A stretch of DNA of 64,000 nt from Candidatus Altimarinota bacterium (GTDB taxonomy: Bacteria > Patescibacteriota > Gracilibacteria > 1-14-2-50-48-13): NCBI GenBank assembly GCA_046314355.1, contig JBKBWQ010000001.1, positions 672,001-736,000 of the forward strand, in the 5' to 3' direction. This document shows positions 20,535 through 37,025 of this stretch, piece by piece (the first letter of the stretch is position 1; every line of letters starts with the position of its first letter). The translations under genes were made by a program, and so were the position numbers. The notes beneath the pieces were generated by a model, which did no database searches, was not told the origin of the DNA, and saw only the letters and a list, made by a program, of their open reading frames with translations.

Positions 20535-20611
20535 GCCCGCGTAGCTCAGCTGGATAGAGTACTTGGCTTCGAACCAAGGGGTCGTAGGTTCGAACCCTGC
20601 CGCGGGTACCA
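20535..20611 (+). tRNA. tRNA-Arg(TCG)
   Basis: Acceptor GCCCGCG/CGCGGGT, D-loop with A20, anticodon arm CTTGG-CT TCG AA-CCAAG, GGTTCGAAC, encoded CCA. Confidence 0.97.
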
Positions 20612-20712
20612 GAATTTTCTTCGAAAATTCGAGTACTTAGTAGTGAGTACTTTGTAATTAGTACGCCCTTTTTATAATGAGCCACTAATTACTAACTACA
20701 AACTACTATCAC

Positions 20713-22425
20713 TCACGCGAAGCGTATATGCACTCGTAGCTCAGCTGGATAGAGCGTTGGTTTGCGGAACCAAAGGTCGTAGGTTCGAACCCTGTCGAGT
20801 GCACCATATAGAAATTTTAAGGTACTCAACATAGTGTTAAGCTTGTTTGATGCAGGCTTTTTTGGTTCGACCACGCTAATACTCTTCTCTCCTTTAGGTT
20901 TGGCGAACCGAAACAGGATCTTTATTTTTAATTTTCCTTCTTCACTGTAGTAAGCCTCTATTCGTTCAACAAGGACAGAAATAATTGTACGTCTTTGCTC
21001 AAAGCTTAGATCATCTACTTTATCCTTAAAGTATAGAGCAAAGCCTTCAATCGCTTTGAAGGTCATTTCATGGTTAATGAGTCGCTCAAGTTCATCTAAT
21101 AGGGCTTGTTCACTTTTCATACAATCATTAATTGTTTTCTGATACTCAGCTTGCTTTCTATCCCTAAATTCTTCAGAAATACTTCCCTTATAGTAATCTT
21201 CCATAAGCCTCTCAAAAGATTTTTCAGCAATCTCCTTTTGTCTGACAACGTTCTCTATTTCACGCTGTTTACCTCGAACGTGGACTTTGGTGACAATTTG
21301 TTTTTTATAAATCGCAAAAAACTTTTTAGGGTTATTTATAGCCATCAGTACATGGTTCCACACAAAATTATCAATTACCTCTCCTGGTATCTCTAAATTG
21401 CTATACCTTAAACCATCCTCACGAATAAAAGCCTTATGACGATACGAATGCCCTCCTTTGGGTCTCATATATCCAATAAATTTCCTCTTTGATATTGGAT
21501 TATATATTTTTCTTGAAAGTAGGTACTCACGTTGTCCTCCTCCTTTATTACCACTAGTTTCTGTAATCTCATGAATAATCTCCTTAGCTTGGTCAAAAAC
21601 TACCTTCGTAATGATCTGTGGTGCCTTCTCTCTTACAACTCCATGATCCTTGAATGTGATCTCTCTATACCCCAAATAAATGCTATTTTTTAATATATCT
21701 TTAATAGATGTATCATACCATTGGGTATCCTTCACCTTAGAGCCTCGTTGATTAGACTTAGGGACATGTAGCTTATTCATTTCTATAGCAATTTCACCGT
21801 AGTTCTTGCGTTCAAGTATAAACCAAAAAAAGATCTGCTTTACCCATTTAGCTTCTTCAGGGATTACTTCAAGCTGTGAGCCTTTCTTATCTATATTTTT
21901 CACTTTTTTGTACCCATATGGTACAGCTGAACCCGTATAGTTACCAAGCCGAGCAGAGGCAATCTTCCCTTCCATCGTGCGAGTTTTTATTGTTTCTCTT
22001 TCAAACTCAGCCAAAGCACCAAAGATCTGGAATGTAAGCTTACCAATAGGACCAGTAAAATCTACATTCTCTTTGAGAGAATAGAAACTTACTCCATACT
22101 TCTGCATCTCTTCAAAAGCAAACAATAGATGTGAAAGATTACGGGACAAGCGGTCAATCTTCCATACAGCAACTAGGTCCACTTCTTTACGCTTCACACA
22201 CTCCATTAGTTCCTTGAATTTTGGACGGTTTAAATCTGCACCACTTAGCCCCTCATCAATAAATTCCCATTTCTTCTCATGGACCCAGTTATGTAATTTA
22301 CTGCGGTATTTTACTAGCTCATTTAGTCCATCAAGTTGCATAGCTAAGCCAAAGCCTTCTACTTGCTCTTCCGTAGAAACTCGGAGGTAAAAAGCTACTC
22401 GTACAGGTTTTTTGTCTTCTTCCAT
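20713..22425 (-). CDS. Large serine recombinase (integrase); last 29 codons run antisense through tRNA-Arg(GCG)
   Basis: Catalytic YLRVST motif, then DEGLSGA, RPKF, DRLSR, AEFERETI, PYGY (recombinase domain) and a coiled coil. Confidence 0.93.
   Translation of the reverse strand: MEEDKKPVRVAFYLRVSTEEQVEGFGLAMQLDGLNELVKYRSKLHNWVHEKKWEFIDEGLSGADLNRPKFKELMECVKRKEVDLVAVWKIDRLSRNLSHLLFAFEEMQKYGVSFYSLKENVDFTGPIGKLTFQIFGALAEFERETIKTRTMEGKIASARLGNYTGSAVPYGYKKVKNIDKKGSQLEVIPEEAKWVKQIFFWFILERKNYGEIAIEMNKLHVPKSNQRGSKVKDTQWYDTSIKDILKNSIYLGYREITFKDHGVVREKAPQIITKVVFDQAKEIIHEITETSGNKGGGQREYLLSRKIYNPISKRKFIGYMRPKGGHSYRHKAFIREDGLRYSNLEIPGEVIDNFVWNHVLMAINNPKKFFAIYKKQIVTKVHVRGKQREIENVVRQKEIAEKSFERLMEDYYKGSISEEFRDRKQAEYQKTINDCMKSEQALLDELERLINHEMTFKAIEGFALYFKDKVDDLSFEQRRTIISVLVERIEAYYSEEGKLKIKILFRFAKPKGEKSISVVEPKKPASNKLNTMLSTLKFLYGALDRVRTYDLWFRKPTLYPAELRVHIRFA
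20730..20806 (+). tRNA. tRNA-Arg(GCG), the integration target
   Basis: Acceptor GCACTCG/CGAGTGC, anticodon arm TTGGT-TT GCG GA-ACCAA, T-arm, encoded CCA. Confidence 0.96.
20802..20808 (+). other. att core CACCATA at the tRNA-proximal junction (tRNA C72-A73-CCA plus TA)
   Basis: Identical 7-mer at 30082-30088. On the minus strand it encodes Y540-G541 of the integrase. Confidence 0.75.
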
Positions 22426-22504
22426 GCAGTAAAAAAAAAGAATGATACAGGTATTGTATACATCTTTTTTCTTCCTCTCAACGTTTCTCTTTAATCTTTC
22501 ATAC

Positions 22505-22705
22505 TTAACCTTGTGGAGCTCTTGTATCTTTTAAGATTACACGCAGTATAAATTCATCATCTTCTTCTCTCTTATCTTCAGGAATTTCATCATCAAAAAC
22601 AGCCTCTATTTCAATTATATGGGTCCTTCTCCCCATTGGAGGTATTACTAGAATAGAAGGATTATCCTGCTTATTCTGCGCTGTTTTAAGAGGTTTTTTC
22701 TTCAC
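22505..22705 (-). CDS. Small protein upstream of the integrase (possible directionality factor)
   Basis: 66 aa, GTG start, basic N-terminus and acidic C-terminus. Function inferred from position only. Confidence 0.5.
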   Translation of the reverse strand: MKKKPLKTAQNKQDNPSILVIPPMGRRTHIIEIEAVFDDEIPEDKREEDDEFILRVILKDTRAPQG

Positions 22706-22785
22706 AAAAAATCAAGATAGGATTTGTTGTAGTGATCCTACTGATTTAAATTATGACCTCGTGACATCAGAAACCAGAAGTAATG

Positions 22786-23496
22786 TCACAACCAACCAAT
22801 CCTTTGTTTTATCTCTTCTAATTTTCTATGAGAGATCTGACGTACATTTGCCGCCCTACGAGTGTCTGTTTGTTCATCCCCTTCAGGATAAACTTCTGCA
22901 ACAATATCCTTCGATGAATACTTATATTCTTCATCAAATGTTTTCACTTTCTTCCCTCTTTGCTGAGATTTTTCTAATATCATCTTATCTCTATTAGCAT
23001 TCTTTTTTGGTCTATGTACTATAGCTTTATTAGGCTCTGAGAAATTTCTAATAATCTCCATGAGTTCATTAGAAACTAACAATTCTTTCTGAGACGGTTT
23101 ACGGTATGTAGCAATTGAAAGTGTACTCGGTTGATTATTCTCATAATGACGAACAACCTCGGCATTAGCTACTGGAGCCGTAATTTCATTAAAAATCACA
23201 TAAGTTTCTATAGCTCTTCTGTAGCGCTTATCCACTTTAAGCTCATGACACCTTTGATGTAGTTTATTGATGTCTTCGCACCAATCTTCAATCTTCTCAT
23301 CTAAGTTTATATACCATTCAGTTTTTTGCTCACCACCTTTTACAGTGAAAGGAAAACCTTCTAAAGGTATATTATAGCATTTACGAAGCTCTGTGACATT
23401 TTCTTTAAATGCTGGAATCTGAACAAGCAATTCCATTAGGTTGAGATTTGCTTGGTAAACATTCTTATCAAAGTCTTCATTCTCAATCTGTTTCAT
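22786..23496 (-). CDS. Hypothetical protein, possible C-terminal HTH-like DNA-binding domain
   Basis: 236 aa with a basic C-terminus (RDKMILE...YSSKDIVAEV...AANVRQISHR). Start overlaps the OLD gene stop. Confidence 0.7.
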   Translation of the reverse strand: MKQIENEDFDKNVYQANLNLMELLVQIPAFKENVTELRKCYNIPLEGFPFTVKGGEQKTEWYINLDEKIEDWCEDINKLHQRCHELKVDKRYRRAIETYVIFNEITAPVANAEVVRHYENNQPSTLSIATYRKPSQKELLVSNELMEIIRNFSEPNKAIVHRPKKNANRDKMILEKSQQRGKKVKTFDEEYKYSSKDIVAEVYPEGDEQTDTRRAANVRQISHRKLEEIKQRIGWL

Positions 23497-25489
23497 GACT
23501 TCTAGTTAGATCTTGAATATCATTCCAATGGACAATTTGCATGTGCAATTTTTCAATCATGGAAATTAAGACTTGGTTATCTTTGAGGTCTTGTATAACC
23601 ATGTTTTTGGTAACTTTTAATGCAAACCTTTTCTTGGCCTTAGTATAACGATCTTGATATTTTTCATCTAGAGATTTCTCAAATGGTTGACCTCTTTTAT
23701 TCATTTCATAGGTATCAGGTACAATGTCATCTTTATATGCCCTGACCAAGCAATCTCTAGTTAAGTAATTCTCTATTTCAGTTCCATCTGTTATCCATCC
23801 AAATCCATGTCCCTTATTAGCTTCTGCCTCAATCTTAATTTTAGTTGACCACATATTATCTGTTTCACTATCTCTATCCATCAATACAACCGCATTTCTA
23901 TTTATATGTAACATACTTATAAAGTCTTGATTAGCTTCTTCTACTTCGTCTATCCAATCTTGATCCAAATCAAAATTTGAAAGTACTTTTCCACCGTAAA
24001 ATAGTATTGAAAAATCTCTACCCTCAACAACTTTTGTAATATTTTCATTTAATGCTTGAAAAAGGTTTAGCCACTTTAGAAGATATATTCTATCTGAAGG
24101 ACCTTCCACCCATATAATTCCATTTGACTGCAATAGATCAGAAGCAAATATACCCAGCTCCCTACAAAGGTCTGACATAGAATTACAGTCTCCATTATCA
24201 TTAAAAATATTTTCTACTCTGCTGAATGTTTCCTTTGCATCCATCGAAACCTTTATAATTTTCGTTGAAGTTCTTATTTTCAGTAATGGATCAATAAACG
24301 TATTTGAGTGAGTCGTAATGAAAAATTGGTATCCATACTTTTTACTTTGATCCATTAAAAACCTTATGAATGCTCTTTGTAGCTTTGGATGGAAGTGTGA
24401 TTCAGGTTCTTCAATTAAAATTAATGAATTCTCTGTCGATAGAATAATCTCGAGAGACATATAAATTAATTGTTCAAGACCAGCTCCAAGTTGCGAAAGC
24501 GGAAGTATCTTATCATCAAGACTTAGCTCAATAGCATACTGTGTACTCTCATTTATATCTGGAAATATGAGCTCTAGCCTATCTATTTGATTTTCAGGTA
24601 TGGAAGGAAAAAGTAGTTCTCTAAGCATTTGCTTAACTTGTAGGAATTTCTTTCGTTCGGCGATTCTACCGTCTCTAAGATTCATTAATCTCTGGACAAT
24701 TCTACCTTCTAAATCATCTTTTAATTCATTATGTCTCTTCTCAAATAAAAGAGGATATATTCCTCTTAATGGTTGAATGGTTGTCAAACGATTACTAGAG
24801 ATGCTACGCAAGACCCTTTTCAACACTATGCCTACATCACCAAACATAGACCTCGCCTTAACAGCTATACCTTCAGGTACGTGGCGACTAACAGGATCCA
24901 TTGCACTAATAATTCCTCTCGATTCATGTACGCTAATTACCAAATTTTCTTCTATATCAAACAACGTATACTCTCTACCATTCTCAGAATCAGGGATAGA
25001 TAATCCAATAAGTTCTGCCTGCAATTCCATTTGATGAATTTCCTTTATCTTAAATTTAAATTTTAAAGATTTTTCTTCTCTTTCTGATTCTTCCCATAAT
25101 GTGGGTATAATTTTTATTTGACGTTGCCCTGCATTAAAAAATGGTAGAATAGTTTTTATTTCATCAGCTTCTTCTTTTGTAAAAACCAAAGCAAAAGAAA
25201 TATATAATTCTTTTGGAATTTTCTGCATATAAAAAAGATCCTCAATTTTTCTTATAAAACTAAGCTTAGTCTTAATATCATCAATACCTATTACATGAGT
25301 AAAGTGTTCCCTATTATTCCATTCAGCAGAAAACAAGATATAATGAATGAATAGTAACGATTTTAAAACATTAGATTTACCTTCATTGTTTGGTCCTATA
25401 ATCAAATTATATTTATCAAAAGTGACATCTAAAGGGTGTTCTTCTGAAAAACTAAGCATATTACTAATATGTAGACTTTGTATTTTCAT
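23483..25489 (-). CDS. OLD-family ATP-dependent nuclease (ABC ATPase plus TOPRIM)
   Basis: ATPase: Walker A GPNNEGKSN, signature LGAG, Walker B LIEEPESHFHP, ITTHSN. TOPRIM: WVEGPSD, DRD, EIENYL. Confidence 0.9.
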   Translation of the reverse strand: MKIQSLHISNMLSFSEEHPLDVTFDKYNLIIGPNNEGKSNVLKSLLFIHYILFSAEWNNREHFTHVIGIDDIKTKLSFIRKIEDLFYMQKIPKELYISFALVFTKEEADEIKTILPFFNAGQRQIKIIPTLWEESEREEKSLKFKFKIKEIHQMELQAELIGLSIPDSENGREYTLFDIEENLVISVHESRGIISAMDPVSRHVPEGIAVKARSMFGDVGIVLKRVLRSISSNRLTTIQPLRGIYPLLFEKRHNELKDDLEGRIVQRLMNLRDGRIAERKKFLQVKQMLRELLFPSIPENQIDRLELIFPDINESTQYAIELSLDDKILPLSQLGAGLEQLIYMSLEIILSTENSLILIEEPESHFHPKLQRAFIRFLMDQSKKYGYQFFITTHSNTFIDPLLKIRTSTKIIKVSMDAKETFSRVENIFNDNGDCNSMSDLCRELGIFASDLLQSNGIIWVEGPSDRIYLLKWLNLFQALNENITKVVEGRDFSILFYGGKVLSNFDLDQDWIDEVEEANQDFISMLHINRNAVVLMDRDSETDNMWSTKIKIEAEANKGHGFGWITDGTEIENYLTRDCLVRAYKDDIVPDTYEMNKRGQPFEKSLDEKYQDRYTKAKKRFALKVTKNMVIQDLKDNQVLISMIEKLHMQIVHWNDIQDLTRSHETD

Positions 25490-25545
25490 GAATTATCTGT
25501 AGTTAATTTAAGAATACTATAAGCCATACTAGTGAAAATAAGGCT

Positions 25546-25577
25546 AAAAAAAAGACCTTGTTAGAACAAGGTCTTTT
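25546..25577 (-). terminator. Intrinsic terminator after the SLH/DUF4352 gene
   Basis: AAAAGACCTTGTT-AG-AACAAGGTCTTTT, with a long T-tract on the minus strand. Confidence 0.75.
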
Positions 25578-25582
25578 AGACT

Positions 25583-26305
25583 TTATAAATTCACATAAAA
25601 CTGTCCAAGCTTCCCATAGTCTATTTCATACTTCAGATCTTTCAATGTCGCATCTATAGGAACCTCAAAAGCAACATATCCACGTGTCTCTCTTGTATTC
25701 TCAAGCTCTCCACTGCTTAGAAGAGGAGTTTTGTCTGTCACTGCCATCTGGTATGCGTAACTATCCTTGTCATAAAGGGTAAAGTTATAAGCATTATAGG
25801 AAATTGTTTTTCCACTATTATTACTGATCCGAACATCTGCAATAACATACTTCTTTCCTGCATCTGCTTTAAACAAAGATGATGAATAATCTGCCACACT
25901 ACTTACTGTAAGAGTGACGCCATTTAAAGTACCCGCAGAGTTGAGGCTGATTGTTTTAGATGTCTCAGTCGTATTTACATTTGTGTTTCCGTTAGAGGTA
26001 GTCGTAGTAGGATTTTTTAACATCGTATCTATCTGTGCCTTCGTATAGTAGTTTTTTGCTACGTACGCATTGTATCTATTCCACATTGCAGAAAGCTCCG
26101 CACGGTTTACGTTGTTTCCTGGTTTGAAGGTCCCATCGGGATTACCTCGTATAACGTCCCAATCTACCATTTTCTGGACATCGTTATAGAACCAGTCACT
26201 TGGACTGACATCGCTAAAACTCATTTGAGCTGCGAACGTTGCACCCACTCCGAAGAGAGAACCAACGAGAAATATTGCTGTGCCTACTGCCATTGTTTTT
26301 TTCAT
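25583..26305 (-). CDS. Secreted SLH-domain protein with a C-terminal DUF4352-like Ig fold
   Basis: Likely start MKKTMAVG (signal peptide). SLH motif FSDV..SDWF....GNPDGTFKPGNNVNRAE, a Thr/Asn linker, then GKKYVIADVRISN...F.LYD...GYVAFEVP. Confidence 0.85.
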   Translation of the reverse strand: MKKTMAVGTAIFLVGSLFGVGATFAAQMSFSDVSPSDWFYNDVQKMVDWDVIRGNPDGTFKPGNNVNRAELSAMWNRYNAYVAKNYYTKAQIDTMLKNPTTTTSNGNTNVNTTETSKTISLNSAGTLNGVTLTVSSVADYSSSLFKADAGKKYVIADVRISNNSGKTISYNAYNFTLYDKDSYAYQMAVTDKTPLLSSGELENTRETRGYVAFEVPIDATLKDLKYEIDYGKLGQFYVNL

Positions 26306-26331
26306 AGTTTTTGAAAAAAAGGGATAAAAAC

Positions 26332-26465
26332 AAAAAGGACGTACATGGCTGATCCAATACGCTTGCCCATAAGGTAGCCTTACTGGCATGTACGCCCACC
26401 TCTGGCAGTAAAGCCTTAGGAAAGAACGTTCCTTATGGAATTGGTAAACTATATTGGATCAGCAC
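26332..26465 (-). ncRNA. Putative structured 5' leader RNA (three nested helices, 11-bp loop-tail helix, U-tract)
   Basis: P1 13 bp (26451-63/26348-60), P2 8 bp (26431-38/26367-74), P3 10 bp (26406-15/26376-85). Loop 26387-97 is complementary to 26337-47. It begins just downstream of a TTGCAA..TGcTACTAT promoter. Confidence 0.72.
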
Positions 26466-26502
26466 GAAGATAGTAGCAGAAACAGAATCTTTTGCAATTA
26501 TA

Positions 26503-26552
26503 GTTTTCAACGTTGGAAACCCTCATTTCAGGGAGTTTCCAACGTTGAAAAC
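26503..26552. repeat. Perfect 18-bp inverted repeat whose arms are themselves near-palindromic
   Basis: GTTTTCAACGTTGGAAAC-14 nt-GTTTCCAACGTTGAAAAC. Confidence 0.9.
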
Positions 26553-27025
26553 CCCTAAGTATTTTAGAAAATACAGACCTAAAATTGACATATTTGTAAA
26601 TTAACAGCTAATCTCACCAAAGTACTGATTTAGCTCAAGCAAATCCAACCACAGATGCTAAATTATTACACATTTACAATACATGTATTTTATTTTTTTA
26701 TTCTATCTATCATTTGCGGTATGTCTGCTTAAAAAAGAGATATTTATATTTCATAGCATAAACATATCTTCTCTTTTGTGAGAGCTAACTTTACCTATTT
26801 TTACATTCATATTTATAAATAAGAATAACCTTTATCTTTAAGTAAATCCAACCAAGTATTTATACTTTACAGTATACTTTTTCTCCTTTCTTATTACAAT
26901 TTCTATATAAATCCCATTTTAGAGATAATCTCAATTATAAAAAAGCTTTAGAAACTGTATTATTTTGACTTATTCATGACCTGAATCTTATAAAATAGCT
27001 TAAATCTCTACCACCTCACTTATAA

Positions 27026-28534
27026 ATGCCAAATACACCTAAAACACGAATTAATATATATTTCTCTGACTTTTTTAATATTGCTCCTAAAGTTATAGAG
27101 GACTTTGGAGCATTAAATATTTCGTTAGTCTCAGATTTACCTTTATTTATAGACCCCTTTCTTCTCTTCCACAGTACAAAAGAACCCTATAAAGAAATTC
27201 ATATTCAAATAATAAAGTATCTACATTTCTTACGAAAGACATCTACATCCGTTAGTATTGGAGACAAAGGAAGATTAAAAACTTTGTATAGTTTTTCAGA
27301 AGTAAAACAAACTTGGTTAGGATTTACCGAAAACAGCAATAAGGGTAAAGGTCTAGGACCAATCTTTGCATCCAAGTTAGACAATAATTTACGCAAAATT
27401 TTTAAACAGTTTGGGGAAGAAGAAGTAACTCAATCAAGTCATCTAGAAAAACTTTGCTTATTAGAGAAAGGTGTTGGAGCAGATTCAATAAGTGATTATA
27501 CGACAAATCTAATATGGGGCTTTCTTGCTGAATATACAGAAGAGTTTGCAAAAGCACATTTATCCGCTGCACAATGTAAATTAGTCACTATCCCAAGAGC
27601 TTTCTTTAATGAAGAAACTGAAATGTGGGTATCAAAGAACTACACATTGCCATATATAAATGGTGATTACGTCCTTTTGACTCCTATAGACATAGTAGCC
27701 AGAGAAAAAAATTGGATAAATAGAGACGATCTTATTAAAGATTTTGAAGCTATTCCTGAAATAATTACTAATGAAGAACTCAGATCTGGTATTAGTAATT
27801 ATTTTTGTAAAAAACTAGCAGAAAAGTCACCTAACTCTTCGCCTACGGCTGAAGATAAAGTATATGCTATTAACAGCACCTTCCATCAATTTCCAGAATT
27901 GATCGATTACTATATTCTCTTAAAAGAAATAACTGGCGACAAAGCTAGTAAGATTAATAAGGAGGAAATAAGCCATATGAGAGAAGCTGTTATTAAAAGA
28001 GCCAATGCATTAGTAGATCTTCTAAGCCATTGTACTAAATTCTATGACATAGAGGGAAATACGTATGAAGAGGCATTAAAACGTATCCAGTATTTAAAAC
28101 ATGTAATAGAGGATGAGGATGGCTATAGAATTTTTCATCAAAATGGCACTGTAAAGAAACGAGAATCTGATATTCATGCACTTTTCAAACTAACTTGGTG
28201 TGGAACTAAGTATGATGTAAATTCTGAGGTAAATAATGGACGTGGTCCTGTAGATTTTAAAGTCTCATTAGGAAGTACTGATAAGACTCTTGTAGAATTT
28301 AAGTTAGCTTCTAACCCTCAGCTAGAAAGGAATTTACGCAATCAGGTAGAAATATATAAAAAGGCTAATAAGACCAAAAAAGCCTTAAAAGTAATATTAT
28401 ACTTCACGAAAGGAGAGTTAATCAAAGTAGAAGGCATCTTAAAAAAATTAGGTAGAGAAAATGATCCAACCATTATACTTATTGATGCACGTAATGATAA
28501 TAAGCCTTCTGCTTCAAAAGCAACCACACATTAA
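27026..28534 (+). CDS. Uncharacterised protein with a probable C-terminal PD-(D/E)XK nuclease fold
   Basis: N-terminal DLPLFIDPFLLF. C-terminal RESDIH...EVNNGRGPVDFKVS...LVEFKLASN...QVEIY matches the D...ExK nuclease pattern. Confidence 0.72.
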   Translation: MPNTPKTRINIYFSDFFNIAPKVIEDFGALNISLVSDLPLFIDPFLLFHSTKEPYKEIHIQIIKYLHFLRKTSTSVSIGDKGRLKTLYSFSEVKQTWLGFTENSNKGKGLGPIFASKLDNNLRKIFKQFGEEEVTQSSHLEKLCLLEKGVGADSISDYTTNLIWGFLAEYTEEFAKAHLSAAQCKLVTIPRAFFNEETEMWVSKNYTLPYINGDYVLLTPIDIVAREKNWINRDDLIKDFEAIPEIITNEELRSGISNYFCKKLAEKSPNSSPTAEDKVYAINSTFHQFPELIDYYILLKEITGDKASKINKEEISHMREAVIKRANALVDLLSHCTKFYDIEGNTYEEALKRIQYLKHVIEDEDGYRIFHQNGTVKKRESDIHALFKLTWCGTKYDVNSEVNNGRGPVDFKVSLGSTDKTLVEFKLASNPQLERNLRNQVEIYKKANKTKKALKVILYFTKGELIKVEGILKKLGRENDPTIILIDARNDNKPSASKATTH

Positions 28535-28551
28535 CATATTTTCAGATAACA

Positions 28552-29373
28552 ATGAAGAAAGAAAAAAGTACAGGTAAATATCAAAAACCGATAACAGGAC
28601 TTATGATTTTGGCATATATATTCTTTGCAAAAGAACTATTACCAACAATCAATGAGGGGTTTGATTTTGTTGCTAATATGACAAAGACATTCGGAGTTGA
28701 TAACTCAAAACAAGTTGTATTTGAACCAGATACATATATCCAAGAAGAACTTTTTGCCAATTTTAAGCCTGGTATGAATAGTCAACTGCTTACTGAGAAA
28801 TTTGGTTATCCAAAGTTAATAAATAATATTAATGACTCAAAGCGCTATTTACAGTGGGAAACTAAGAAATATAGTATGGGAACTATAATTGAAAAGGATA
28901 CAGGAAAAATAGAAATGCTAGCTATATATAGTCCTGAATGTAGAGGTACAGTAAAACTACCAAATACTGACATTCAAGGAGTACTTTGCCAAACAACATA
29001 CCCTATAAAGGAACTTTCAGACGTCACCATGCTTATACTTGGAGGTATGAAATATGGTGGTTATTTTGAAGCATATGCATCTGGAGCATGGAATAGTTTT
29101 CAAAGAGAGTATGTCGGCACAAGCTCAACGGGCACAGCTCCATATGTAGAAACAAGTAAATCAGCTAATCCAATTCTAAATTTTATTTATGATAATGATC
29201 TAGTTCACTTAAATCCAGAATCATTACATTTTAGTGAGTATATAAAAAATCCATCTTTTGTAAAAGCACGGACTGAGTCTAAATATAATTTTTACGCTAC
29301 TAGTAATTATAGCACTGAATTATCTGATCTTGAGACGGTATATACTACAATGGAACGTCCATATACATACTAA
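28552..29373 (+). CDS. Single-pass membrane protein with a large extracytoplasmic domain
   Basis: Basic N-terminus followed by a hydrophobic helix (ITGLMILAYIFFA). 17 bp after the nuclease-like gene. Confidence 0.7.
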   Translation: MKKEKSTGKYQKPITGLMILAYIFFAKELLPTINEGFDFVANMTKTFGVDNSKQVVFEPDTYIQEELFANFKPGMNSQLLTEKFGYPKLINNINDSKRYLQWETKKYSMGTIIEKDTGKIEMLAIYSPECRGTVKLPNTDIQGVLCQTTYPIKELSDVTMLILGGMKYGGYFEAYASGAWNSFQREYVGTSSTGTAPYVETSKSANPILNFIYDNDLVHLNPESLHFSEYIKNPSFVKARTESKYNFYATSNYSTELSDLETVYTTMERPYTY

Positions 29374-29384
29374 TCAGGATTATA

Positions 29385-29930
29385 TTAAAAACTATGGTTA
29401 TCTTCTTTGAGCAGTTCGTAATGTCTTAACGTAGATAGATACTTGGGAGATAAAGCAGATAAATAAGTCCTATTAAGTAATTCTTGAGGTATAGATAAAT
29501 ATCCTCTCAATTCTTTATATAGCGAGTCAATTTCATACAATTCATAAGAAGATTTTGTAGTTGAAGCATCAGCATTGTCATGATACCGGCTTTGGTAATG
29601 TGGGAAAAGCCTATCTAATAGATCATTGTGGACAGTAGAAATTTTGTATCTATTTTGTACACTCTCTAATTCATTTCGAAGCTTTGCAGGATTATGTTTG
29701 TCATTCCCTTTTAATGTAGTTTTTTGTTTGGTTTCTAAATAAAGCAGTGCCTTAATAATCTTTTCAATTGCCTGGCATGCTATTTCTAATCCTGGCTCAA
29801 TTAAACTATTGAGGATTAAGCATCTTGCAGCAAGATAGTCCATATCTGCATGAAATAGAAAAAGCATTGATTCAGCATATTCATTATGAAAATCTTTCGC
29901 CGTTTTAGAAAGCTCTGGAAGTTGAGGCAT
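29385..29930 (-). CDS. HEPN-domain protein
   Basis: Helical HEPN pattern: ADMDYLAAR, ACQAIEKIIKA, KHN, SRY. Confidence 0.78.
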   Translation of the reverse strand: MPQLPELSKTAKDFHNEYAESMLFLFHADMDYLAARCLILNSLIEPGLEIACQAIEKIIKALLYLETKQKTTLKGNDKHNPAKLRNELESVQNRYKISTVHNDLLDRLFPHYQSRYHDNADASTTKSSYELYEIDSLYKELRGYLSIPQELLNRTYLSALSPKYLSTLRHYELLKEDNHSF

Positions 29931-29953
29931 TATATTCGAAGAATAAGTAATAT

Positions 29954-30091
29954 CTAAACCTTAGCGACGAAAATTTTTGTTGTCCACCTATTCTTTGCCA
30001 ATATCTTCTCTACCTGAGCTAAGATAGGAATATACACATATTCCTCAGGCTTATTTTGAATGTAACCATAGCAGGCTTGTTCACCATACAT
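29954..30091 (-). CDS. Orphan integrase C-terminal tail at the distal junction (M-YGEQACYGYIQNKPEEYVYIPILAQVEKILAKNRWTTKIFVAKV)
   Basis: Stop-free frame from the distal CACCATA core to TAG at 29954-56, in frame with the integrase Y-G codons. An ATG from flanking host DNA (30089-91) precedes it. Confidence 0.6.
   Translation of the reverse strand: MYGEQACYGYIQNKPEEYVYIPILAQVEKILAKNRWTTKIFVAKV
30082..30088 (+). other. att core CACCATA at the distal junction
   Basis: Followed by CATTTTCTGGGAAAATTTGAGTA, similar to the tRNA-Arg(TCG) trailer GAATTTTCTTCGAAAATTCGAGTA. Confidence 0.75.
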
Positions 30092-30518
30092 TTTCTGGGA
30101 AAATTTGAGTAAGTAGTCTTAGATGCTTTGCAGAAGGCTTTTTTTGTATCAAGTACTGTTTATTATTTACAAAGTAATGAGCTCATAGGTTAACAAAAAT
30201 CAGACCTAGCCGCAGTGATTTTTCACGTTTTGACAGAAAAAACAGATACTCTACTTAGTCAAAGATATTATTATGAGTAAACCATCACTAGAAGTTCTTG
30301 TGATGGTTTTATACGAAATTTTTCTCGTTTTGTGTATTTTCGTGGATATAATTTCATACACTCTCGTTCAGATATTCTACTCCTATAATTGATTTGCACA
30401 CATTTGGAGCAAAAAAAGTATAAAAGTATTCTAGGACTAGACAAATCTATAGGTCATTGTAAAAAAACACCTGTTCATGCTATAATTTATAGAAGTTATA
30501 CCTCCTATCCCTCCAAAA

Positions 30519-33500
30519 ATGTTTTATACAAAAACAAAAAAGGTATCAACGCTGTTCCTGCTCTCTGCATTTATCTTTGGATTCATACTCAATTCAGAAT
30601 TAGTCTTTGCAGCCAATGTAGCGCCCGTTGCATCCGATGTTTCTATTACTGGCGGCACCAATGTCGGCGACCTTCTTACAGGTAACTACACTTTTAGTGA
30701 TGCTGATAACGATTGGACTGCACTAGGCGGTGCGGGAAATGCATATAATGGTGAAACATGGAGACCAAAAATGAAGGTTGACCAATCAGGAAACGTATAT
30801 TTTGCATTCGGTTCAGATATACCTAATGGTAATAAAGGTACAGTGACAAAATACGATCCTAATACACAAAGCTGGTCATTTGTAGGTACGCCGTATTTCA
30901 CACCTGGAGCTGCTCGTGATGTAGGGCTAGATATTGATTCAAATGGCACTCCTTATTTTGCATTTCAAGATGAAGCAAATTTTTATAGACCCTCAGTGAT
31001 GAAATTTAATGGTACGTCATGGGTATACGTAGGATTACCTGAAGTCTCTAATGTGCCTATAAATAGCCAGTTAAATCTTGTTTTGGATAGTAATGACTTA
31101 CCATATATCTCGTATGTAAATGATACTAATTTTAAACTTAAAGTATTGAGATTCAATGGCACCTCTTGGGTTGATGTTGGTCCTGCTGGTGAACCATCCA
31201 CTGATGCTGCCCGTGGTGGATCTCTTGCTCTTGATGGAAATAATGTACCTTATATTACTTACGCAATCGCGCCCTCTGCTGCGAATGGATATAATTATGG
31301 TAAAGTAATAGTAAAGAAGTTTAATGGTACCTCATGGATTGATGTTGGTCCTGCTGGTGGTGTTAGTGAAGAAACAGCAACTGATGTCACTATGGCTATT
31401 GACTCTAATAACGTACCTTATTTTGTTTATTCCAATACTACTGGAGGTAATAAGGCACTGAAATTCAATGGCAGCGTTTGGGAATATATTGGTTCAAATA
31501 GCGGTTCAGTCACACCAGTATTTGGAGCTAGTAGTCCATATCTAGCCCTCGATGATAATGATGTCCCATACGTAGCTCTTGAGGTTGTTGACTTTAATGA
31601 TGGAACCTACTCTAATTCAGTAAGAAAATTTAATGGTACTTCTTGGGAAACTGTAGGCAGCGATAGTTTTACCCCTGCCCGCGGATATATCCCGGTATTG
31701 GACTTTGATGCAGACCAAAATGTCTATATAGGATTTGAAGACTTTTATTTTTCAGATCCAGATAATGATGTTGTATCTTATGGTACCGTAACGAAATATG
31801 CTATAGTAGATGAGGAAGGAGCATCTACCTATCGATGGCTAAGAGATGGTACTCCTATATCTGGAGCGACCGCTTCGACATACACTATTGTTACTGCCGA
31901 CCGAGGTACCACACTTACCTTTGAGGTCACTCCAGTAGCTGCTACAGGCACTTCTCCAGGTACCGCTGCAACGAGTCCAGCGTACTTCATCCCCGATGAA
32001 CCACCAGAAGCAAGTAATGTCTCTATCACAGGTAATCCGAGAACTGGAGAACTCCTCACCGGAGAATATACCTACAGCGACCCTGATGGGAATCCTGAAG
32101 GAAATACTACATTTCAATGGTTTAAGGATGATACACCCATATCAGATGCAACTACTACTACTTATACAGTTAAACCTAGTGATGTAGGGCATAATATTGC
32201 TTTTGAGGTAAGACCAGTAGCTTCAGCAGGTATCACAAATGGAACCCCTGTACGAAGTGTAAATGTTATGATCCTCAATGCTCCACCAATGGCAAGCAAT
32301 GTTTCAATCTCTGGAAATCCTTATGCAGGAGAAGTGCTTACAGGTCAGTATACCTTTAGCGATGCAGATAGTAATATTTGGAAATCTGTAAATAATAATG
32401 GTGATGCTTCACTTGGAACTAATGCTCAATCTGCTTTCTTGAGAAATGATGCAGCAGGCAAACTCTATATGGGATATGTAGACCAGAATTTCTTAGGTAC
32501 AGTGACAACATATAACACGGTTACAGAGACTTGGGAGTATGTAGGTTCACCTGCCTTCACAAATAGCAATGTATATATGAGCGCATTTGATGTAAGCGAG
32601 ACTGGAACTCCATACTATGCCTTCATGGATGAATCAGTAAATTACCAGGCTACCGTAATGAAATATAACGGATCATCATGGGTACATGTGGGAGCATTAG
32701 GCTTTACGCCAGACCCAGTCAACAACATATATATTGATATAGATAGTAATAACACTCCTTATATTGCCTATTCTTCTCAACTAGACGCTAGTATCTATGT
32801 GATGAAATATAACGGCACAAGCTGGGTACAGGTAGGTACAAGTCCTGCAAGCGCATCTAATGCTTCTTTTGCATTAGATCATGACGGAACACCCTACATC
32901 GCATACTTAGATAACAACCATCTTGATTCTAACTTTAACCCAAAAACAACAGTAAAAAAATTTAATGGTACAGCTTGGGTAACTGTGGGCACAGAGGGAT
33001 TTAGCCAAAATGGAGCAACATACACAAGCATTACATTTGATAGCCAGAACCAGCCATATTTAACCTATGATGATGTAGATCTCTATAAGACAATCACTCA
33101 AAAATTTAATGGTACAGCTTGGGAAACGGTAGGTCAGCCAACAGGAGTAGCATATTCAAATGCTCTTATATCTATTGATGCAAATGATGTGCCATACGTA
33201 GTGTATTCAAATTATGCAAATCAATCATCCTTAAATATCATATCATTTAATGGTACCTCATGGGTACCTGTAGGTGATACAGTTATATCAGATCAAACCG
33301 CAGCAAATCCTACTATAGCATTTGGTCCAAATAATAAGCTTTATACGGGTTACGTGGATTATTCGACTATGGACAGTGCGGCTACTGTAAAGACTCTTGA
33401 TGCTGGCGATATAGAAGGTGCAAGTGAATATGCATGGTTAAAAGACAGTTCTCCTATTTCAGGTGAAACTGGAGTCACATATACAGTCAAAGCTGAAGAT

Positions 33501-36500
33501 ATCGGACATACTATTATATTTCAGGTATCTCCACGTTCAGCTACAGGTACAAATCCTGGAACAACGCAGTCTAGTAGTGGTCTTGTCATTCTGAATTCTA
33601 CTCCAACTGCACCGTCTGATCTTTATGCCAATACTGCCGCAAACGGTGCACAGACAGGTCTTACAAACCCTACAATAACTAGTGCTGACATCGTCCTCTC
33701 AGCTATCTACAATGACCCTGACATGGGTGATACTGCAAATAAATATGATATTCAGATCGGTACTGACACAACATTTACCGCTCTTTATTATGCTAGCGGG
33801 ATGGCAGACATAAGTGATATTGCTCAAGGTGAACGCAGCCCTGATATAGTTCTCAATGGGTTTAATGCTGCAGACAATTTAACGTATTATTGGAGAATCA
33901 AATTCTGGGACGTGAATGGCGAAGAAGGTGCATACTCTCAAGCTGCTGAATTTACCACGGTATTAAATGATATTCCCACCTCACCTACTGATCTTTATGC
34001 AAATACTGCGGCTAATGGTGCACAGACAGGACTTACAAACCCTACTTTAAATGATGAGAATATTGTCTTCTCTGCTGTATACAATGATAATGATCCAACA
34101 GATACAGCAAAGAAATACCAGCTGCAGGTTTCAACAGACATTACCTTCAGCACTACGGATTATGACAGTGGTTCAGGGGTAGTTATTACAGACATCTCTA
34201 CGGGAGAACGCAGCATTGATATTGCTCCAGGATCATTTACTGCTGACGATAATACACCTTACTACTGGAGAATAAAGTTCTGGGATGCAAATGATGCGGA
34301 AGGACCATATTCTGGAACAGCTAGTTTCCTTACAAAAATCAATGATACGCCATCCGCACCAATAGATCTTTTCTCAAATACTGCTAGTGAAGGAGCACAA
34401 AGTGGTCTCAGCAATCCAACTCTTGCAGAAAACGAAATAGTCTTTTCAGCCATTTATACTGATGAAGATGCTACAGATACAGCCAACAAATACCAGCTTG
34501 AAATAAGCTCTGATAGCTCCTTTAATACTATAGTGTATGACAGTGGTTCAACAGGTACAAGTATTGCAGATATCAGCGAAGGAGATAGAAGTACAGATAT
34601 TATTCCTGGATTATTTACAGCTGAAGATGATTCTACTTATTACTGGAGGATAAAGTTCTGGGATGATGAAAATACAGAAGGTGCGTTCTCATCTGCTGCA
34701 AGTTTCACTACAAATATTAATGATGCACCAACAGCACCTACAGATCTCTTTGCAAATGACTCCACAACTGGTGCACAAAGCGGACTTACTGATCCAACTA
34801 CTCTACAGACTAGATCACTTGCCTTCTCTGCTGTCTTTAATGATCCAGATACTAACGATACTTCTACACAGTATCAGCTGCAAATATCTGCAACTAATAC
34901 TTTTAGTTCCACTGTCTATGACTCTGGAGCAGAAAGTATTGCAAGTATTGATGCAGGAGAGCGTTCTTCTGATATTACTACTACCTTTACTCCTGAATAC
35001 GAAACAACATATTACTGGAGAATACGTTTCTGGGATGCTGAGACTACGGCAGGAGCATATTCCTCCGCAGCTACATTCTCTGTACCTGATCAGGATGCTC
35101 CTGTAGTTACTAGTACGACGCCAGCAGATGGTGCAACAAACGTATCTACTTCCACAGAAGTAAAACTAAGCATTACTGACCTACTCTCTGAAGTGGATCT
35201 TGATTCTCTTGATATTTCAATAGGCGGCTCCAATGCTATTACCGATGGAGTTTGTGAACAAAATAATTTCAACTGCAGCACCAATCCAATCACAAACGGA
35301 TATGAGATCGTAATTACAAATACGAGTGGTGGATATGCTGCAAATACTCAGCACACAGTGGCATACTCTGTGCAGGATACTGCAGCTACACCAAATGTCC
35401 TTTCTGATGACTTCAGCTTTACTACTCTTGCAGCTCCTGATGCTCCTAGTGATCTCTATGCAAATATTTCCAGTACAGGTGTACAGAGCGGACTTGCAAA
35501 TCCTATGGATCTTAATGGACAGTCAGTTGCCGTATCAGCTGTACACAATGATCCACAGACAGAGGCGGCAGAAAGCTATAGACTTGAAGTTTCTACAGAT
35601 AATGGATTCAGTACGATCATCTTTGATAGCGGAAAGACACAGCTTACTTCTTCCGTCGCGGATGGAGCAAGAAGTCCTAGTATTACAATACCTGAGACTC
35701 TCGTAGATAATACGACATATTACTGGAGAATACGTTTCTGGAGTAATGCCGGTGAAGGTACACCTGCAACTGCAAGCTTTGGAATTCACCTCAATAGTGC
35801 GCCAACAGCACCAACAAATCTCTTTGCAAATGATGCATCCTCCGGAGCACAGACAGGTCTGACAAATCCTACAGATCTTAATAGTACTTCCCTCACCTTC
35901 TCTGGAATATACAACGATCCAGATACTGGCGATATAGCAAATAAGTATCAGCTTCAGATAAGTACTGATAATAACTTTTCGGCCATTGCATATGACAGCG
36001 GATCAACTGGTACAAGTATCACAAATATCATAGCTGGAAACCGCTCAGAGGATATCATTCTTGGAACAAGCTTTACTCCTGTAAGAGGAACAACCTACTA
36101 CTACCGTATTAAGTTCTGGGATGATAGTAATACAGAAGGAGCATTCTCCGCATCTGGTACGAGCAGTGCAACTTTCAAAGTAAAACTTGCTAACACTCCA
36201 ACACCTACTCCTCCAGTATCCGGCGGAGGTGGAGGCGGCGGATATACACCTCCGGCACCAGTAGGGACAAACACTAATACGAATGTACCTAGTACAAATG
36301 CCAATAACAATTCTACGAATACAAATAGTAATACTACTCCGAACAATAATACAAACACTACATCCCCAAACCAGAATAGTACAAATCCAAATACTTCAGG
36401 CTCAGGAGGAACTACTCAAACACCAGAGACTTCACACTCTCTCTGCAAGATTATGAGACCCTTTGATACTACAATCAGCGACGCTATTACTGAATCAGAA

Positions 36501-37025
36501 CTCAAAGGTACAATGGAGAGACTTCTCAAGAAAGGTGTCGTACTTAATGATCAGGAGAGTGTATTTGATATCTATTCAGAAGTGGATCGTGGAACTCTTG
36601 TAAGATATATTCTCCAATCAAATTGTGAAACTTATCCAGTTTTACCATTATTTAAAGCACCATTCATCGATGTACCTGTTACCAATACCAATGCTCTCTT
36701 CATCTCTATTGCAAAAGCATATGGAAAGATAAAAGGATATGAAGTAGATGGAACCTTCAGACCAGGTAATAAGATCACTCGAGCTGAAGCATTAAAGATC
36801 ATCCTTGAGATTACACTTGGTGATGGAGAAAGAAAGCTCACTGGAACTGCTAGTCCATACAATGATGTGCCAGCTGATGCTTGGTTCAAGGATTATGTAA
36901 GTTATGCCTTTGAACACGGAATCATTAAGCCTCTTGAAGATAAGAAGTTTAGACCAAATGATGCTGCAAAGAAAAGCGAGATCTTCTATATGCTTGGAAG
37001 AGTATTTGCTTTTAAGAATAGCTAA
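30519..37025 (+). CDS. Giant SLH-anchored surface protein: AIR9/A9-type Ig domains, two KFNGTSW beta-propellers, six YYWRIKFWD FN3-like repeats, Big_5-like domain, T/N linker, C-terminal SLH
   Basis: Signal peptide, repeats visible in the translation, and SLH motifs PFIDVP...GTFRPGNKITRAEA and PYNDVPADAWF...FRPND. Confidence 0.9.
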   Translation: MFYTKTKKVSTLFLLSAFIFGFILNSELVFAANVAPVASDVSITGGTNVGDLLTGNYTFSDADNDWTALGGAGNAYNGETWRPKMKVDQSGNVYFAFGSDIPNGNKGTVTKYDPNTQSWSFVGTPYFTPGAARDVGLDIDSNGTPYFAFQDEANFYRPSVMKFNGTSWVYVGLPEVSNVPINSQLNLVLDSNDLPYISYVNDTNFKLKVLRFNGTSWVDVGPAGEPSTDAARGGSLALDGNNVPYITYAIAPSAANGYNYGKVIVKKFNGTSWIDVGPAGGVSEETATDVTMAIDSNNVPYFVYSNTTGGNKALKFNGSVWEYIGSNSGSVTPVFGASSPYLALDDNDVPYVALEVVDFNDGTYSNSVRKFNGTSWETVGSDSFTPARGYIPVLDFDADQNVYIGFEDFYFSDPDNDVVSYGTVTKYAIVDEEGASTYRWLRDGTPISGATASTYTIVTADRGTTLTFEVTPVAATGTSPGTAATSPAYFIPDEPPEASNVSITGNPRTGELLTGEYTYSDPDGNPEGNTTFQWFKDDTPISDATTTTYTVKPSDVGHNIAFEVRPVASAGITNGTPVRSVNVMILNAPPMASNVSISGNPYAGEVLTGQYTFSDADSNIWKSVNNNGDASLGTNAQSAFLRNDAAGKLYMGYVDQNFLGTVTTYNTVTETWEYVGSPAFTNSNVYMSAFDVSETGTPYYAFMDESVNYQATVMKYNGSSWVHVGALGFTPDPVNNIYIDIDSNNTPYIAYSSQLDASIYVMKYNGTSWVQVGTSPASASNASFALDHDGTPYIAYLDNNHLDSNFNPKTTVKKFNGTAWVTVGTEGFSQNGATYTSITFDSQNQPYLTYDDVDLYKTITQKFNGTAWETVGQPTGVAYSNALISIDANDVPYVVYSNYANQSSLNIISFNGTSWVPVGDTVISDQTAANPTIAFGPNNKLYTGYVDYSTMDSAATVKTLDAGDIEGASEYAWLKDSSPISGETGVTYTVKAEDIGHTIIFQVSPRSATGTNPGTTQSSSGLVILNSTPTAPSDLYANTAANGAQTGLTNPTITSADIVLSAIYNDPDMGDTANKYDIQIGTDTTFTALYYASGMADISDIAQGERSPDIVLNGFNAADNLTYYWRIKFWDVNGEEGAYSQAAEFTTVLNDIPTSPTDLYANTAANGAQTGLTNPTLNDENIVFSAVYNDNDPTDTAKKYQLQVSTDITFSTTDYDSGSGVVITDISTGERSIDIAPGSFTADDNTPYYWRIKFWDANDAEGPYSGTASFLTKINDTPSAPIDLFSNTASEGAQSGLSNPTLAENEIVFSAIYTDEDATDTANKYQLEISSDSSFNTIVYDSGSTGTSIADISEGDRSTDIIPGLFTAEDDSTYYWRIKFWDDENTEGAFSSAASFTTNINDAPTAPTDLFANDSTTGAQSGLTDPTTLQTRSLAFSAVFNDPDTNDTSTQYQLQISATNTFSSTVYDSGAESIASIDAGERSSDITTTFTPEYETTYYWRIRFWDAETTAGAYSSAATFSVPDQDAPVVTSTTPADGATNVSTSTEVKLSITDLLSEVDLDSLDISIGGSNAITDGVCEQNNFNCSTNPITNGYEIVITNTSGGYAANTQHTVAYSVQDTAATPNVLSDDFSFTTLAAPDAPSDLYANISSTGVQSGLANPMDLNGQSVAVSAVHNDPQTEAAESYRLEVSTDNGFSTIIFDSGKTQLTSSVADGARSPSITIPETLVDNTTYYWRIRFWSNAGEGTPATASFGIHLNSAPTAPTNLFANDASSGAQTGLTNPTDLNSTSLTFSGIYNDPDTGDIANKYQLQISTDNNFSAIAYDSGSTGTSITNIIAGNRSEDIILGTSFTPVRGTTYYYRIKFWDDSNTEGAFSASGTSSATFKVKLANTPTPTPPVSGGGGGGGYTPPAPVGTNTNTNVPSTNANNNSTNTNSNTTPNNNTNTTSPNQNSTNPNTSGSGGTTQTPETSHSLCKIMRPFDTTISDAITESELKGTMERLLKKGVVLNDQESVFDIYSEVDRGTLVRYILQSNCETYPVLPLFKAPFIDVPVTNTNALFISIAKAYGKIKGYEVDGTFRPGNKITRAEALKIILEITLGDGERKLTGTASPYNDVPADAWFKDYVSYAFEHGIIKPLEDKKFRPNDAAKKSEIFYMLGRVFAFKNS

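Follow-up and report, generated by a model that had tools for sequence, protein, structure and literature searches.

A large serine recombinase gene that runs through its own recombination core at a tRNA 3′ end and is probably split on integration

What happens to an integrase whose own recombination site lies inside its coding sequence? We investigated this for a large serine recombinase (LSR) encoded in a 64,000-nt stretch of Candidatus Altimarinota DNA, hereafter the window. The gene lies next to a tRNA-Arg(GCG) (20730..20806, + strand; identified by ARAGORN and by the Rfam tRNA model at 66.4 bits), which is the integration target, is intact with its CCA encoded, and carries the only gcg anticodon among the genome's 39 tRNAs. 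The 7-bp core CACCATA, a copy of the tRNA 3′ end (..CACCA) whose opposite strand codes for a nearly invariant Gly541, occurs at 20802..20808 (left copy, attL) and again at 30082..30088 (right copy, attR). On the minus strand, the integrated LSR gene (20713..22425) encodes 570 aa, of which residues 1-541 are native and residues 542-570 are antisense-tRNA codons (20716-20802). The left core supplies Y540 (20806-20808), G541 (20803-20805) and the first base of codon 542, and the 29 antisense-tRNA codons then lead to a TGA at 20713-20715. The right core opens a minus-strand frame of MYG plus 42 codons (29954-30091), in which the stranded codons (29954..30081) encode a conserved C-terminal tail, YVYIPILAQVEKILAKNRWTTKI. 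Joining through the core in silico with a script yielded a 9,280-bp circle and a 583-aa ORF. All coordinates that the original prediction gave for the tRNA, the core copies, the recombinase ORF and the right-hand frame held on recheck, and its claims that the gene spans its own att core and that integration exchanges the C-terminus are supported. The core sits within the integrase reading frame, ~42 codons ahead of the native stop, and because the recombination site lies inside the gene, insertion removes the enzyme's conserved tail.

The explanation that best fits the locus as a whole, and which we consider very likely, is that 20809-30088 is a 9,280-bp integrative island placed at the tRNA-Arg(GCG) 3′ end by its own LSR. 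The 7-bp repeat taken alone is at chance level: CACCATA occurs 5 times in the window where 6.5 copies are expected, and 78 of 100 shuffles contain at least 5. The boundaries are placed by the displaced tRNA trailer and the tail homology, not by the repeat. A conserved trailer motif (~65-70 nt) directly follows nine tRNAs in this genome, and a native trailer of this kind, that of tRNA-Arg(GCG), lies at 30089..30155 (+ strand), 9.28 kb away from its own tRNA, with the motif beginning at 30090, 2 nt past the right core. Searching 1.69 Mb with a profile of the nine trailers (nhmmer) returned 11 sites: the nine themselves, 30090-30151 in the window (E = 2e-4) and one other orphan. The displaced trailer is 73% identical to 20614-20654, and both of the likenesses noticed earlier, to the sequences 3′ of tRNA-Arg(TCG) and of tRNA-Asn, are real. 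The genome has two trailer families, and the DNA now immediately 3′ of tRNA-Arg(GCG) fits neither; two relatives of the same family (G001 and G002) have the tRNA-Arg(TCG)-tRNA-Arg(GCG) tandem without any LSR. The island boundaries as originally predicted are thus upheld by the trailer and the tail homology. The locus has the parts named in the Islander definition of a tRNA-targeting island, namely an intact tRNA, a displaced 3′ part and an integrase on board; the displaced tRNA copy is only 7 bp long, but the native trailer comes next. Dyad symmetry in the reconstructed attP and attB did not rise above chance (best 9/22; random: mean 5.8, sd 2.1), which leaves the crossover position undefined. 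In the one sequencing run containing this DNA (probably the source, as contigs), we saw the integrated form only and no excision or junction reads.

The enzyme itself carries Resolvase (PF00239, E = 5e-36, residues 10-161) and Recombinase (PF07508, E = 5.6e-14, residues 189-285) domains, with the catalytic-serine motif present and R15, S17 and Q21 invariant across 42 aligned relatives. The zinc ribbon PF13408 was not matched in the window LSR and reached only E = 0.22 in a relative (P0005), while the family profile aligns through this region to the SPbeta integrase (9dxh; positions 60-504 against 60-523, E = 6e-25) and matches the TP901-1 catalytic domain at E = 2e-37. Among the island proteins scanned against Pfam, no tyrosine recombinase, transposase or other recombinase domain was detected.

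The original prediction had treated the 42 residues beyond the right core as an alternative tail; homologue alignment and a profile match identify them as the family's conserved native C-terminus. With a profile built from 20 homologous tails, all from outside the window, the peptide at 29957-30081 was the only significant match among 1,789 six-frame peptides (E = 9.8e-5; runner-up E = 1). A first profile of 13 sequences had given the window tail only E = 0.06, and we regard the match as moderate. The window tail aligns in register with six split tails and has an 8-aa insertion relative to the others. Across 119 homologues, the tail is fused to the enzyme in 15, antisense T-loop motifs stand in its place in 54, and 39 proteins end no more than 8 aa from the split column (other, 11); a Gly occupies that column in 105 of 120 homologues. 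The tail is a module of ~35-40 aa in which hydrophobic residues alternate and a Tyr/Trp signature is invariant; it is conserved between proteins that are only 35-47% identical, and no Pfam match was found within it in any of the six proteins scanned. Between two split tails, dN was 0.38 and dS 1.42 (dN/dS ~0.27). Contigs bearing fused, tail-containing genes span 3.1-26.2 kb (14 proteins), and they may be free circles, judging from their short size alone.

The split-gene arrangement is no one-off but characterises an entire group of Patescibacteria LSRs. In six of the 22 related loci scanned (L008, L011, L015, L174, L177 and L178; E = 1e-11 to 1.4e-3), we found the tail encoded on the same strand as the integrase and at the island's far end, and these islands occupy tRNA-Arg, -Tyr, -Pro and -Lys genes. 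With the window included, all seven split elements are open and in phase across the core, which is located at the CCA end of the tRNA and has a shared length of 3-20 bp. For L015, where the direct repeat measures 20 bp, the empty site was found in a relative (G033). Among the 10 related loci that have 10 kb of upstream flank in full, 5 yielded no tail; these islands may be longer, or may have lost their tails. More broadly, among 204 LSR loci whose 3′ end is complete, 22 terminate in antisense tRNA (16 family loci, L179 and five more distant ones, four of which are labelled Parcubacteria, Nomurabacteria or Dojkabacteria), and the more distant Patescibacteria LSRs read just a few codons into the tRNA. 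The related elements are small (3.5-11.6 kb), and searches of phage records (≤28% identity), plasmids (≤27%) and IMG/VR (≤35%) returned no close relative of the LSR.

The region around the left core carries several signals at once. On the tRNA strand, 33 nt past the tRNA, a terminator-like hairpin with a T-run (20839..20865, +) falls within the codons of the integrase linker; read on the other strand, the T-run supplies the Lys codons of an 'EPKK' motif. By itself the window hairpin is weak (-8.9 kcal/mol, z = -1.75; 9 of 200 shuffles fold equally well), and across the family such a feature occurs at 13 of 19 integrated loci compared with 14 of 285 control windows. A GGTTCG motif (20864..20869, +), the antisense of Glu-Pro codons, keeps its position throughout the family, 56-57 nt downstream of the tRNA end (16 of 19 loci; 17 of 798 control windows). 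Protein linker, tRNA 3′ end and opposite-strand terminator thereby share ~70 bp, an extreme overlap of information. Directly upstream of the integrase gene, a position occupied by an ORF in many related loci, is a 66-aa ORF (22505..22705, -) with the family-conserved motif IPPxG[KR]R. A profile of four upstream ORFs found it as the sole significant match among the 1,789 peptides (E = 2.8e-9). The protein is a candidate directionality factor or regulator.

From this anatomy, we infer that the free circle would encode the 583-aa enzyme with its conserved, probably beta-rich tail of ~40 aa. Integration would split the gene, leaving a chromosomal copy of residues 1-541 plus 29 meaningless antisense-tRNA residues and stranding the tail codons at the other island end. 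The element would spare the tRNA, whose displaced trailer would be replaced by the terminator-like hairpin dual-coded in the integrase linker. Because the integrated state has only the tail-less gene, yet the tail is open and constrained, the tail would be dispensable for excision and would have to serve the episomal phase. As originally proposed, the arrangement may be a switch that sets directionality or stability. A tentative reading, to which we give somewhat less than even weight, is that the tail is needed for attP x attB integration or biases the enzyme towards it, such that the two states correspond to two isoforms and the 66-aa ORF encodes a candidate excision cofactor. More speculatively still, a Patescibacteria-wide LSR clade might have adopted tRNA 3′ ends through a triple-coded attP that serves as crossover site, as copy of the CCA end with a replacement terminator, and as the codons joining the enzyme to its C-terminal module. 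On this view the module would be lost on integration and regained on excision, and the physical state of the element would therefore decide which isoform is made; such built-in control of directionality, in which the 66-aa protein would be the cofactor, has not been described for serine integrases.

SSV1-type fusellovirus integrases are archaeal tyrosine recombinases that target tRNA genes and have att within the integrase gene, which integration partitions; the target of Mx8 is also a tRNA gene. In SSV1 the gene is cut into two large parts, and in another domain of life, whereas the LSR here loses just its last ~42 codons. According to the pertinent passages of PMC6070905, Mx8 IntP/IntX has attP inside the integrase coding sequence, and integration makes a new 3′ end and an altered enzyme that is still active with changed properties; a passage of PMC4383910 cites Mx8 together with SSV as integrases extending across attP. 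The present system works like this kind, with a crossover core in the integrase frame and a C-terminus changed by integration, but is not a member of it: Mx8 Int belongs to the tyrosine recombinases, whereas the only domains found in the LSR are Resolvase and Recombinase. Canonical large serine integrases have attP beside the gene, not within it, and target mostly protein-coding genes. The LSR family shares its domain order with SPbeta (SprA/YokA), TP901-1, A118, Bxb1 and phiC31, and differs from the canonical enzymes by an extra linker, the conserved tail and its use of tRNA 3′ ends. We know of no use of tRNA genes by serine integrases as a class. Passages of PMC4383910 give the field's view that tRNA genes are targeted by tyrosine integrases only, and 'tRNA' occurs 0 times in the available text of the largest att-site survey (PMC10083194). 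A tRNA-targeting LSR family challenges this rule of tyrosine-only targeting. In mycobacteriophage BPs, it is the repressor gene that is split, the integrase belongs to the tyrosine recombinases, and what is lost is a short degradation tag. There too, as described in part of PMC4557955, attP lies within a coding sequence and integration alters the protein's C-terminus, hence the element's state; BPs splits its repressor, whereas here the integrase itself is split. The only serine-integrase precedent in the literature searched is the streptococcal IME_Spy2096_SNF2, for which PMC5357655 remarks in one sentence that the recombination site is within the integrase gene. Its target is the conjugation gene snf2, not a tRNA, and the PMC5357655 passages on it do not describe a family-wide pattern, a conserved tail or a functional meaning. 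The expectation that this arrangement is unusual for a serine integrase is supported.

Island finders keyed to tyrosine integrases beside tRNA genes would miss such elements in candidate-phyla bacteria. Where large DNA is to be inserted one way only, serine integrases are the tools of choice, and their direction is, to our knowledge, thought to be set solely by a separate directionality factor. A natural enzyme edited by its own reaction would give a new handle on directionality, with the tail present only in the free form. The system should also be easy to work with, as it calls for no more than three forms of the protein, two short-site pairs and a single small candidate cofactor.

Could the overlap instead be a by-product of compaction, with a tail that has no regulatory role and a truncated enzyme that is fully equivalent? 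The small size of the elements would suit this, as would the antisense-tRNA replacement tails, which differ in both sequence and length and are plainly not under selection, and the distant Patescibacteria LSRs that enter the tRNA by only a few codons. We nevertheless consider it unlikely, given that the tail is conserved across proteins of 35-47% identity, is open and in phase in 7/7 split elements, and evolves with a low dN/dS, its conservation reaching over ~35 codons, more than the usual LSR half-site. A quite unlikely variant holds that the tail would be a stability or degradation determinant, so that integration alters the level of the enzyme and not its direction. This draws on the analogy with the C-terminal tags of mycobacteriophage BPs and similar systems, described in part of PMC4557955, where attP is intragenic and integration strips the tag; the tail here, with its hydrophobic alternation and Tyr/Trp signature, is a conserved module of ~35-40 aa and no short terminal tag. 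That the repeat and open frame are coincidental, and that the island ends elsewhere or was moved by another enzyme, has a nearly negligible probability: the chance frequency of the 7-mer and the missing dyad symmetry are offset by the displaced trailer, the tail homology, six replicate islands, the empty site of one of them, and the lack of tyrosine recombinase or transposase domains in the island proteins scanned.

The original prediction also had the switch gate a HEPN gene, placed under integrase read-through in the circle and uncoupled on integration. The gene in question is a 181-aa HEPN-like cargo ORF (29385..29930, -), and the tail-frame stop of the joined form lies 23 nt ahead of its ATG (29930) on the same strand. 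The ORF probably encodes a HEPN-domain protein: 25 of 30 look-alikes by language model and fold fall in HEPN clusters (feature score 0.94, TM 0.59), and residues 94-101 (RYKISTVH) form a candidate Rx6H motif, although the Pfam HEPN score stays under the gathering cut-off (16.3 bits against 22, E = 0.011). A promoter-like TTTAGA-18-TATAAT ends at its ATG, which counts only weakly against read-through, since matches of this type show no enrichment relative to shuffles. None of the island's seven cargo proteins, HEPN included, had a match in any of 23 related loci, and the genes following the tail differ from island to island; it follows that HEPN coupling is not a family feature. With HEPN membership itself only probable, the gating claim is not supported, and we judge it improbable.

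Other cargo includes a 268-aa SLH + DUF4352 surface protein (Pfam; 25583..26389, -) and a 273-aa ORF of no known family (28552..29373, +). A 668-aa AAA_15/AAA_21 ATPase (Pfam; 23483..25489, -) resembles the OLD, GajA and AriA defence proteins (PADLOC: NsnB 2.5e-24, AriA 7e-24, GajA 1e-22, Old 1.6e-19), its NCBIfam matches all being far under the cut-offs. Its would-be partner, a 236-aa ORF (22786..23496, -) that overlaps the end of the ATPase gene, had no family match in PADLOC or Pfam. Lastly, a 502-aa protein (27026..28534, +) showed a weak PD-(D/E)XK match (Pfam E = 5e-4, below cut-off) and matched PDC-M36A, a candidate defence protein, in PADLOC (8e-20).

At the left end of the island, the 570-aa open reading frame at 20713-22425 (minus strand) carries Resolvase (E 5e-36) and Recombinase (E 5.6e-14) domains, and the profile of its family aligned with the SPbeta integrase structure 9dxh over almost its whole length (E 6e-25), identifying it as a large serine recombinase (LSR). 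The gene ends in 29 codons that are antisense to tRNA-Arg(GCG) (20730-20806, plus strand), the single such tRNA in the genome; tRNA-Arg(TCG) lies at 20535-20611 on the plus strand. The att core CACCATA is found at 20802-20808 and at 30082-30088, and a 42-codon frame opens from the right copy in the same phase as the LSR. Scripted joining through the core yielded a 583-aa reading frame and a 9,280-bp circle. We found no dyad symmetry above chance in the reconstructed attP and attB.

The CACCATA 7-mer alone occurs at chance level (5 copies vs 6.5 expected); the boundary is fixed by two independent lines, a displaced tRNA trailer and tail homology. This genome of 1.69 Mb has 39 tRNAs and uses the standard code. 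Two conserved sequence families of ~70 nt lie directly 3' of most tRNA genes, family A at ~14 tRNAs and family B at 9-10, with examples in the window at 20612-20680, 49674-49741 (minus strand) and 54831-54900. None of these trailers matched an Rfam family at gathering score, and they may serve as signals for processing or termination. Used as a profile, nine family-B trailers matched 11 places genome-wide: besides the nine, these are window 30090-30151 (E 2e-4) and a second orphan. The match at 30090-30151 therefore places the native trailer of tRNA-Arg(GCG) 9.28 kb away from its tRNA, and the sequence now directly after this tRNA belongs to neither trailer family. A single run, X1, matched this DNA in one search; it is probably the source and is stored as contigs. 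X1-X3 contained the integrated form in one 26.5-kb contig, no joints, and one loose end at 30091, whose letters differ from the tRNA end; as contigs do not reveal rare circles, this result does not bear on excision.

We then compared the C-termini of 120 relatives listed by a protein search, 105 of which have glycine at the column of window residue G541. Beyond this column, the 119 other proteins continue into antisense T-loop motifs (54), end within 8 residues (39), carry a conserved tail (15) or show other endings (11). The tail has the pattern G-x5-GY[IF]... followed by a strand containing W; its 14 strong carriers are encoded on contigs of 3.1-26.2 kb. With a profile of 13 tails, the same module was recovered in six LSR loci whose integrase gene extends into a tRNA (L008, L011, L015, L174, L177 and L178), each time as a distinct open frame on the integrase strand at the far island end. 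Among the 22 family loci scanned for a far-end tail, ten had the full 10-kb flank, and five of these ten were positive. Against a profile built from 20 tails outside the window, the window's right-end peptide scored E 9.8e-5 and the second-best of 1,789 six-frame peptides E 1; we would grade the match of the right-end peptide as moderate. Judged by sequence, the right-end peptide corresponds to the C-terminus that the family normally has.

In 7 of 7 elements, integrase and tail keep one phase across a shared core, which is 3-20 bp long and takes in the CCA end of the tRNA. From such shared cores we had first taken A73-C74 to be a common crossover dinucleotide, a candidate ruled out by L178, which shares only A76 to +2. 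Between the tails of L008 and L011, dN was 0.38 and dS 1.42. The tail matched no Pfam family in six tail-bearing proteins, and its Atlas look-alikes scored at most 0.77. A representative search with the homologous LSR protein P0005 returned 146 proteins at E up to 1e-30, and among the matches listed no alignment extended into the tail beyond query residue 561; tail-like ends were seen in a few distant members (P0138, E 4e-5; P0126, E 0.083). Viral contigs, phage records and plasmid records contained no close family members. The original prediction, of an integrase split by its own att core whose C-terminus is swapped on integration, was correct in every coordinate; it is supported, and it extends to the whole family. 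The 42-aa tail, whose conservation it proposed to check, does recur among homologues.

Empty sites were sought in relatives. Locus L015 has a 20-bp direct repeat, and the relative G033 provides its empty site, with the same flank followed by tRNA-Tyr and tRNA-Thr and no island. The tRNA tandem is present in the same-family relatives G001 and G002; over 1.5-kb flanks, no empty site for the window's own island was identified in these two genomes, as the flanks were not alignable and the neighbouring proteins not syntenic. Matches of the window LSR in all three genomes were confined to its antisense-tRNA residues 522-567, so no gene of its family was detected there.

A survey of LSRs in genomes, metagenomes and viral contigs covered 240 loci, of which 204 have a complete 3' end. 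Among these 204, the gene finishes in antisense tRNA sequence in 22, made up of 16 loci of the family, L179 and five that are more distant; four of the five bear the label Parcubacteria, Nomurabacteria or Dojkabacteria. Among the targets are Arg, Tyr, Met, Phe, Lys, Ile, Pro, Val and Gly tRNAs. The distant tRNA-abutting LSRs L019, L020, L022, L029, L179 and L182 had no clear far-end tail (the best, at E 0.019, was not counted). The integrases of L012 on tRNA-Phe and L013 on tRNA-Met are very close to each other (branch lengths of 0.045 and 0.12 in the tree), and the 3' halves of their target tRNAs are alike at ~20 of 25 positions by eye; on these sequences, the pair points to easy retargeting or generic recognition of tRNA features. 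In L178 (1-1660), the far-end tail adjoins the 3' end of another LSR gene, of the zinc-ribbon type, which suggests that elements have accreted in tandem at a single tRNA.

The island and its boundaries, the splitting of the gene, the conservation of the tail and the pattern across the family are demonstrated. From these we infer that the free form would produce the 583-aa enzyme and the integrated form, in which there is no intact integrase gene, a tail-less one. Since the tails remain open, in phase and constrained at the protein level although the gene is split, excision would proceed without the tail, which would then have to serve the episomal phase. A switch function of the split is plausible. 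Our best guess, a tentative one that we rate somewhat short of probable, is that the tail promotes or is needed for integration, with the state of the element then choosing the isoform. Alternatively, the tail might be a stability tag, or might have no role at all, a reading to be set beside its low dN relative to dS.

The original prediction further proposed that the split gates expression of a HEPN gene. The window island does encode a probable HEPN protein, along with an OLD/GajA/AriA-like ATPase, a PDC-M36A-like protein and an SLH surface protein. However, cargo varies among islands, and none of the seven cargo proteins had a match in 23 related loci; because the cargo is not conserved, HEPN gating is weakened and is unlikely to be general. 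What the islands share is the integrase, the split tail and a small upstream ORF. As described in the relevant passages of PMC4383910 and PMC6070905, Mx8 IntP/IntX and the SSV integrases follow the same logic as the window LSR family, but are tyrosine recombinases. A one-sentence remark in PMC5357655 on one streptococcal element with a serine integrase is the sole serine-integrase precedent that we found. In the literature searched, we found no account of a family of serine integrases that use tRNA genes and have attP within the integrase gene; tables and figures of the island databases PMC12424338 and PMC13626063 may hold cases.

The small ORF (22505-22705, minus strand) lies directly upstream of the integrase, as in many related loci, and encodes the motif IPPxG[KR]R followed by an acidic stretch. 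It matched a profile built from four relatives at E 2.8e-9 and had no Pfam, NCBIfam or PADLOC match; its product may be a recombination directionality factor or a regulator. A perfect 18-nt inverted repeat (GTTTTCAACGTTGGAAAC / GTTTCCAACGTTGAAAAC, 14 nt between arms) at 26503-26552, in the island's 640-nt gene-free stretch, may be an operator or origin-like site. To the right of the island, starting 430 nt beyond it, a secreted, repetitive protein of 2,168 aa whose C-terminal region is SLH-like is encoded at 30519-37025 (plus strand).

The same genome holds a second island of ~9.8 kb, outside the window (G000:C1:389554-399505, equivalent to L254 555-10506). Its LSR, of 553 aa with a zinc-ribbon domain, differs from the window LSR (28% identical over 90 aa) and runs antisense into tRNA-Met(cat). 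The far end is marked by the genome's other orphan family-B trailer, the second one matched by the profile, and by the core TATGGTGG, after which an in-phase frame stays open for 48 codons; this far-end peptide had no match to the tail profile. Its cargo comprises an AAA_21/AAA_15 ATPase and a 1,387-aa AAA_22 protein.

Lastly, the integrase 3' end overlaps signals on the tRNA strand. A hairpin (-7 kcal/mol or better) with a T-run was present 28-51 nt past the tRNA in 13 of 19 integrated loci, vs 14 of 285 control windows taken antisense to integrase bodies; that of the window, at 20839-20859, has -8.9 kcal/mol (z -1.75). The T-run is the antisense of Lys codons in the conserved linker motif EPKK, and the hairpin would act as a replacement terminator for the tRNA. 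The motif GGTTC[GT], antisense of Glu-Pro codons and resembling the tRNA T-loop, recurs in 16 of 19 loci (vs 17 of 798 controls) at a fixed 56-57 nt past the tRNA 3' end, with the window's GGTTCG at 20864-20869 sharing its offset with 15 other loci. In L016 this stretch is read in a different frame, a hint that the motif is constrained at the DNA level.
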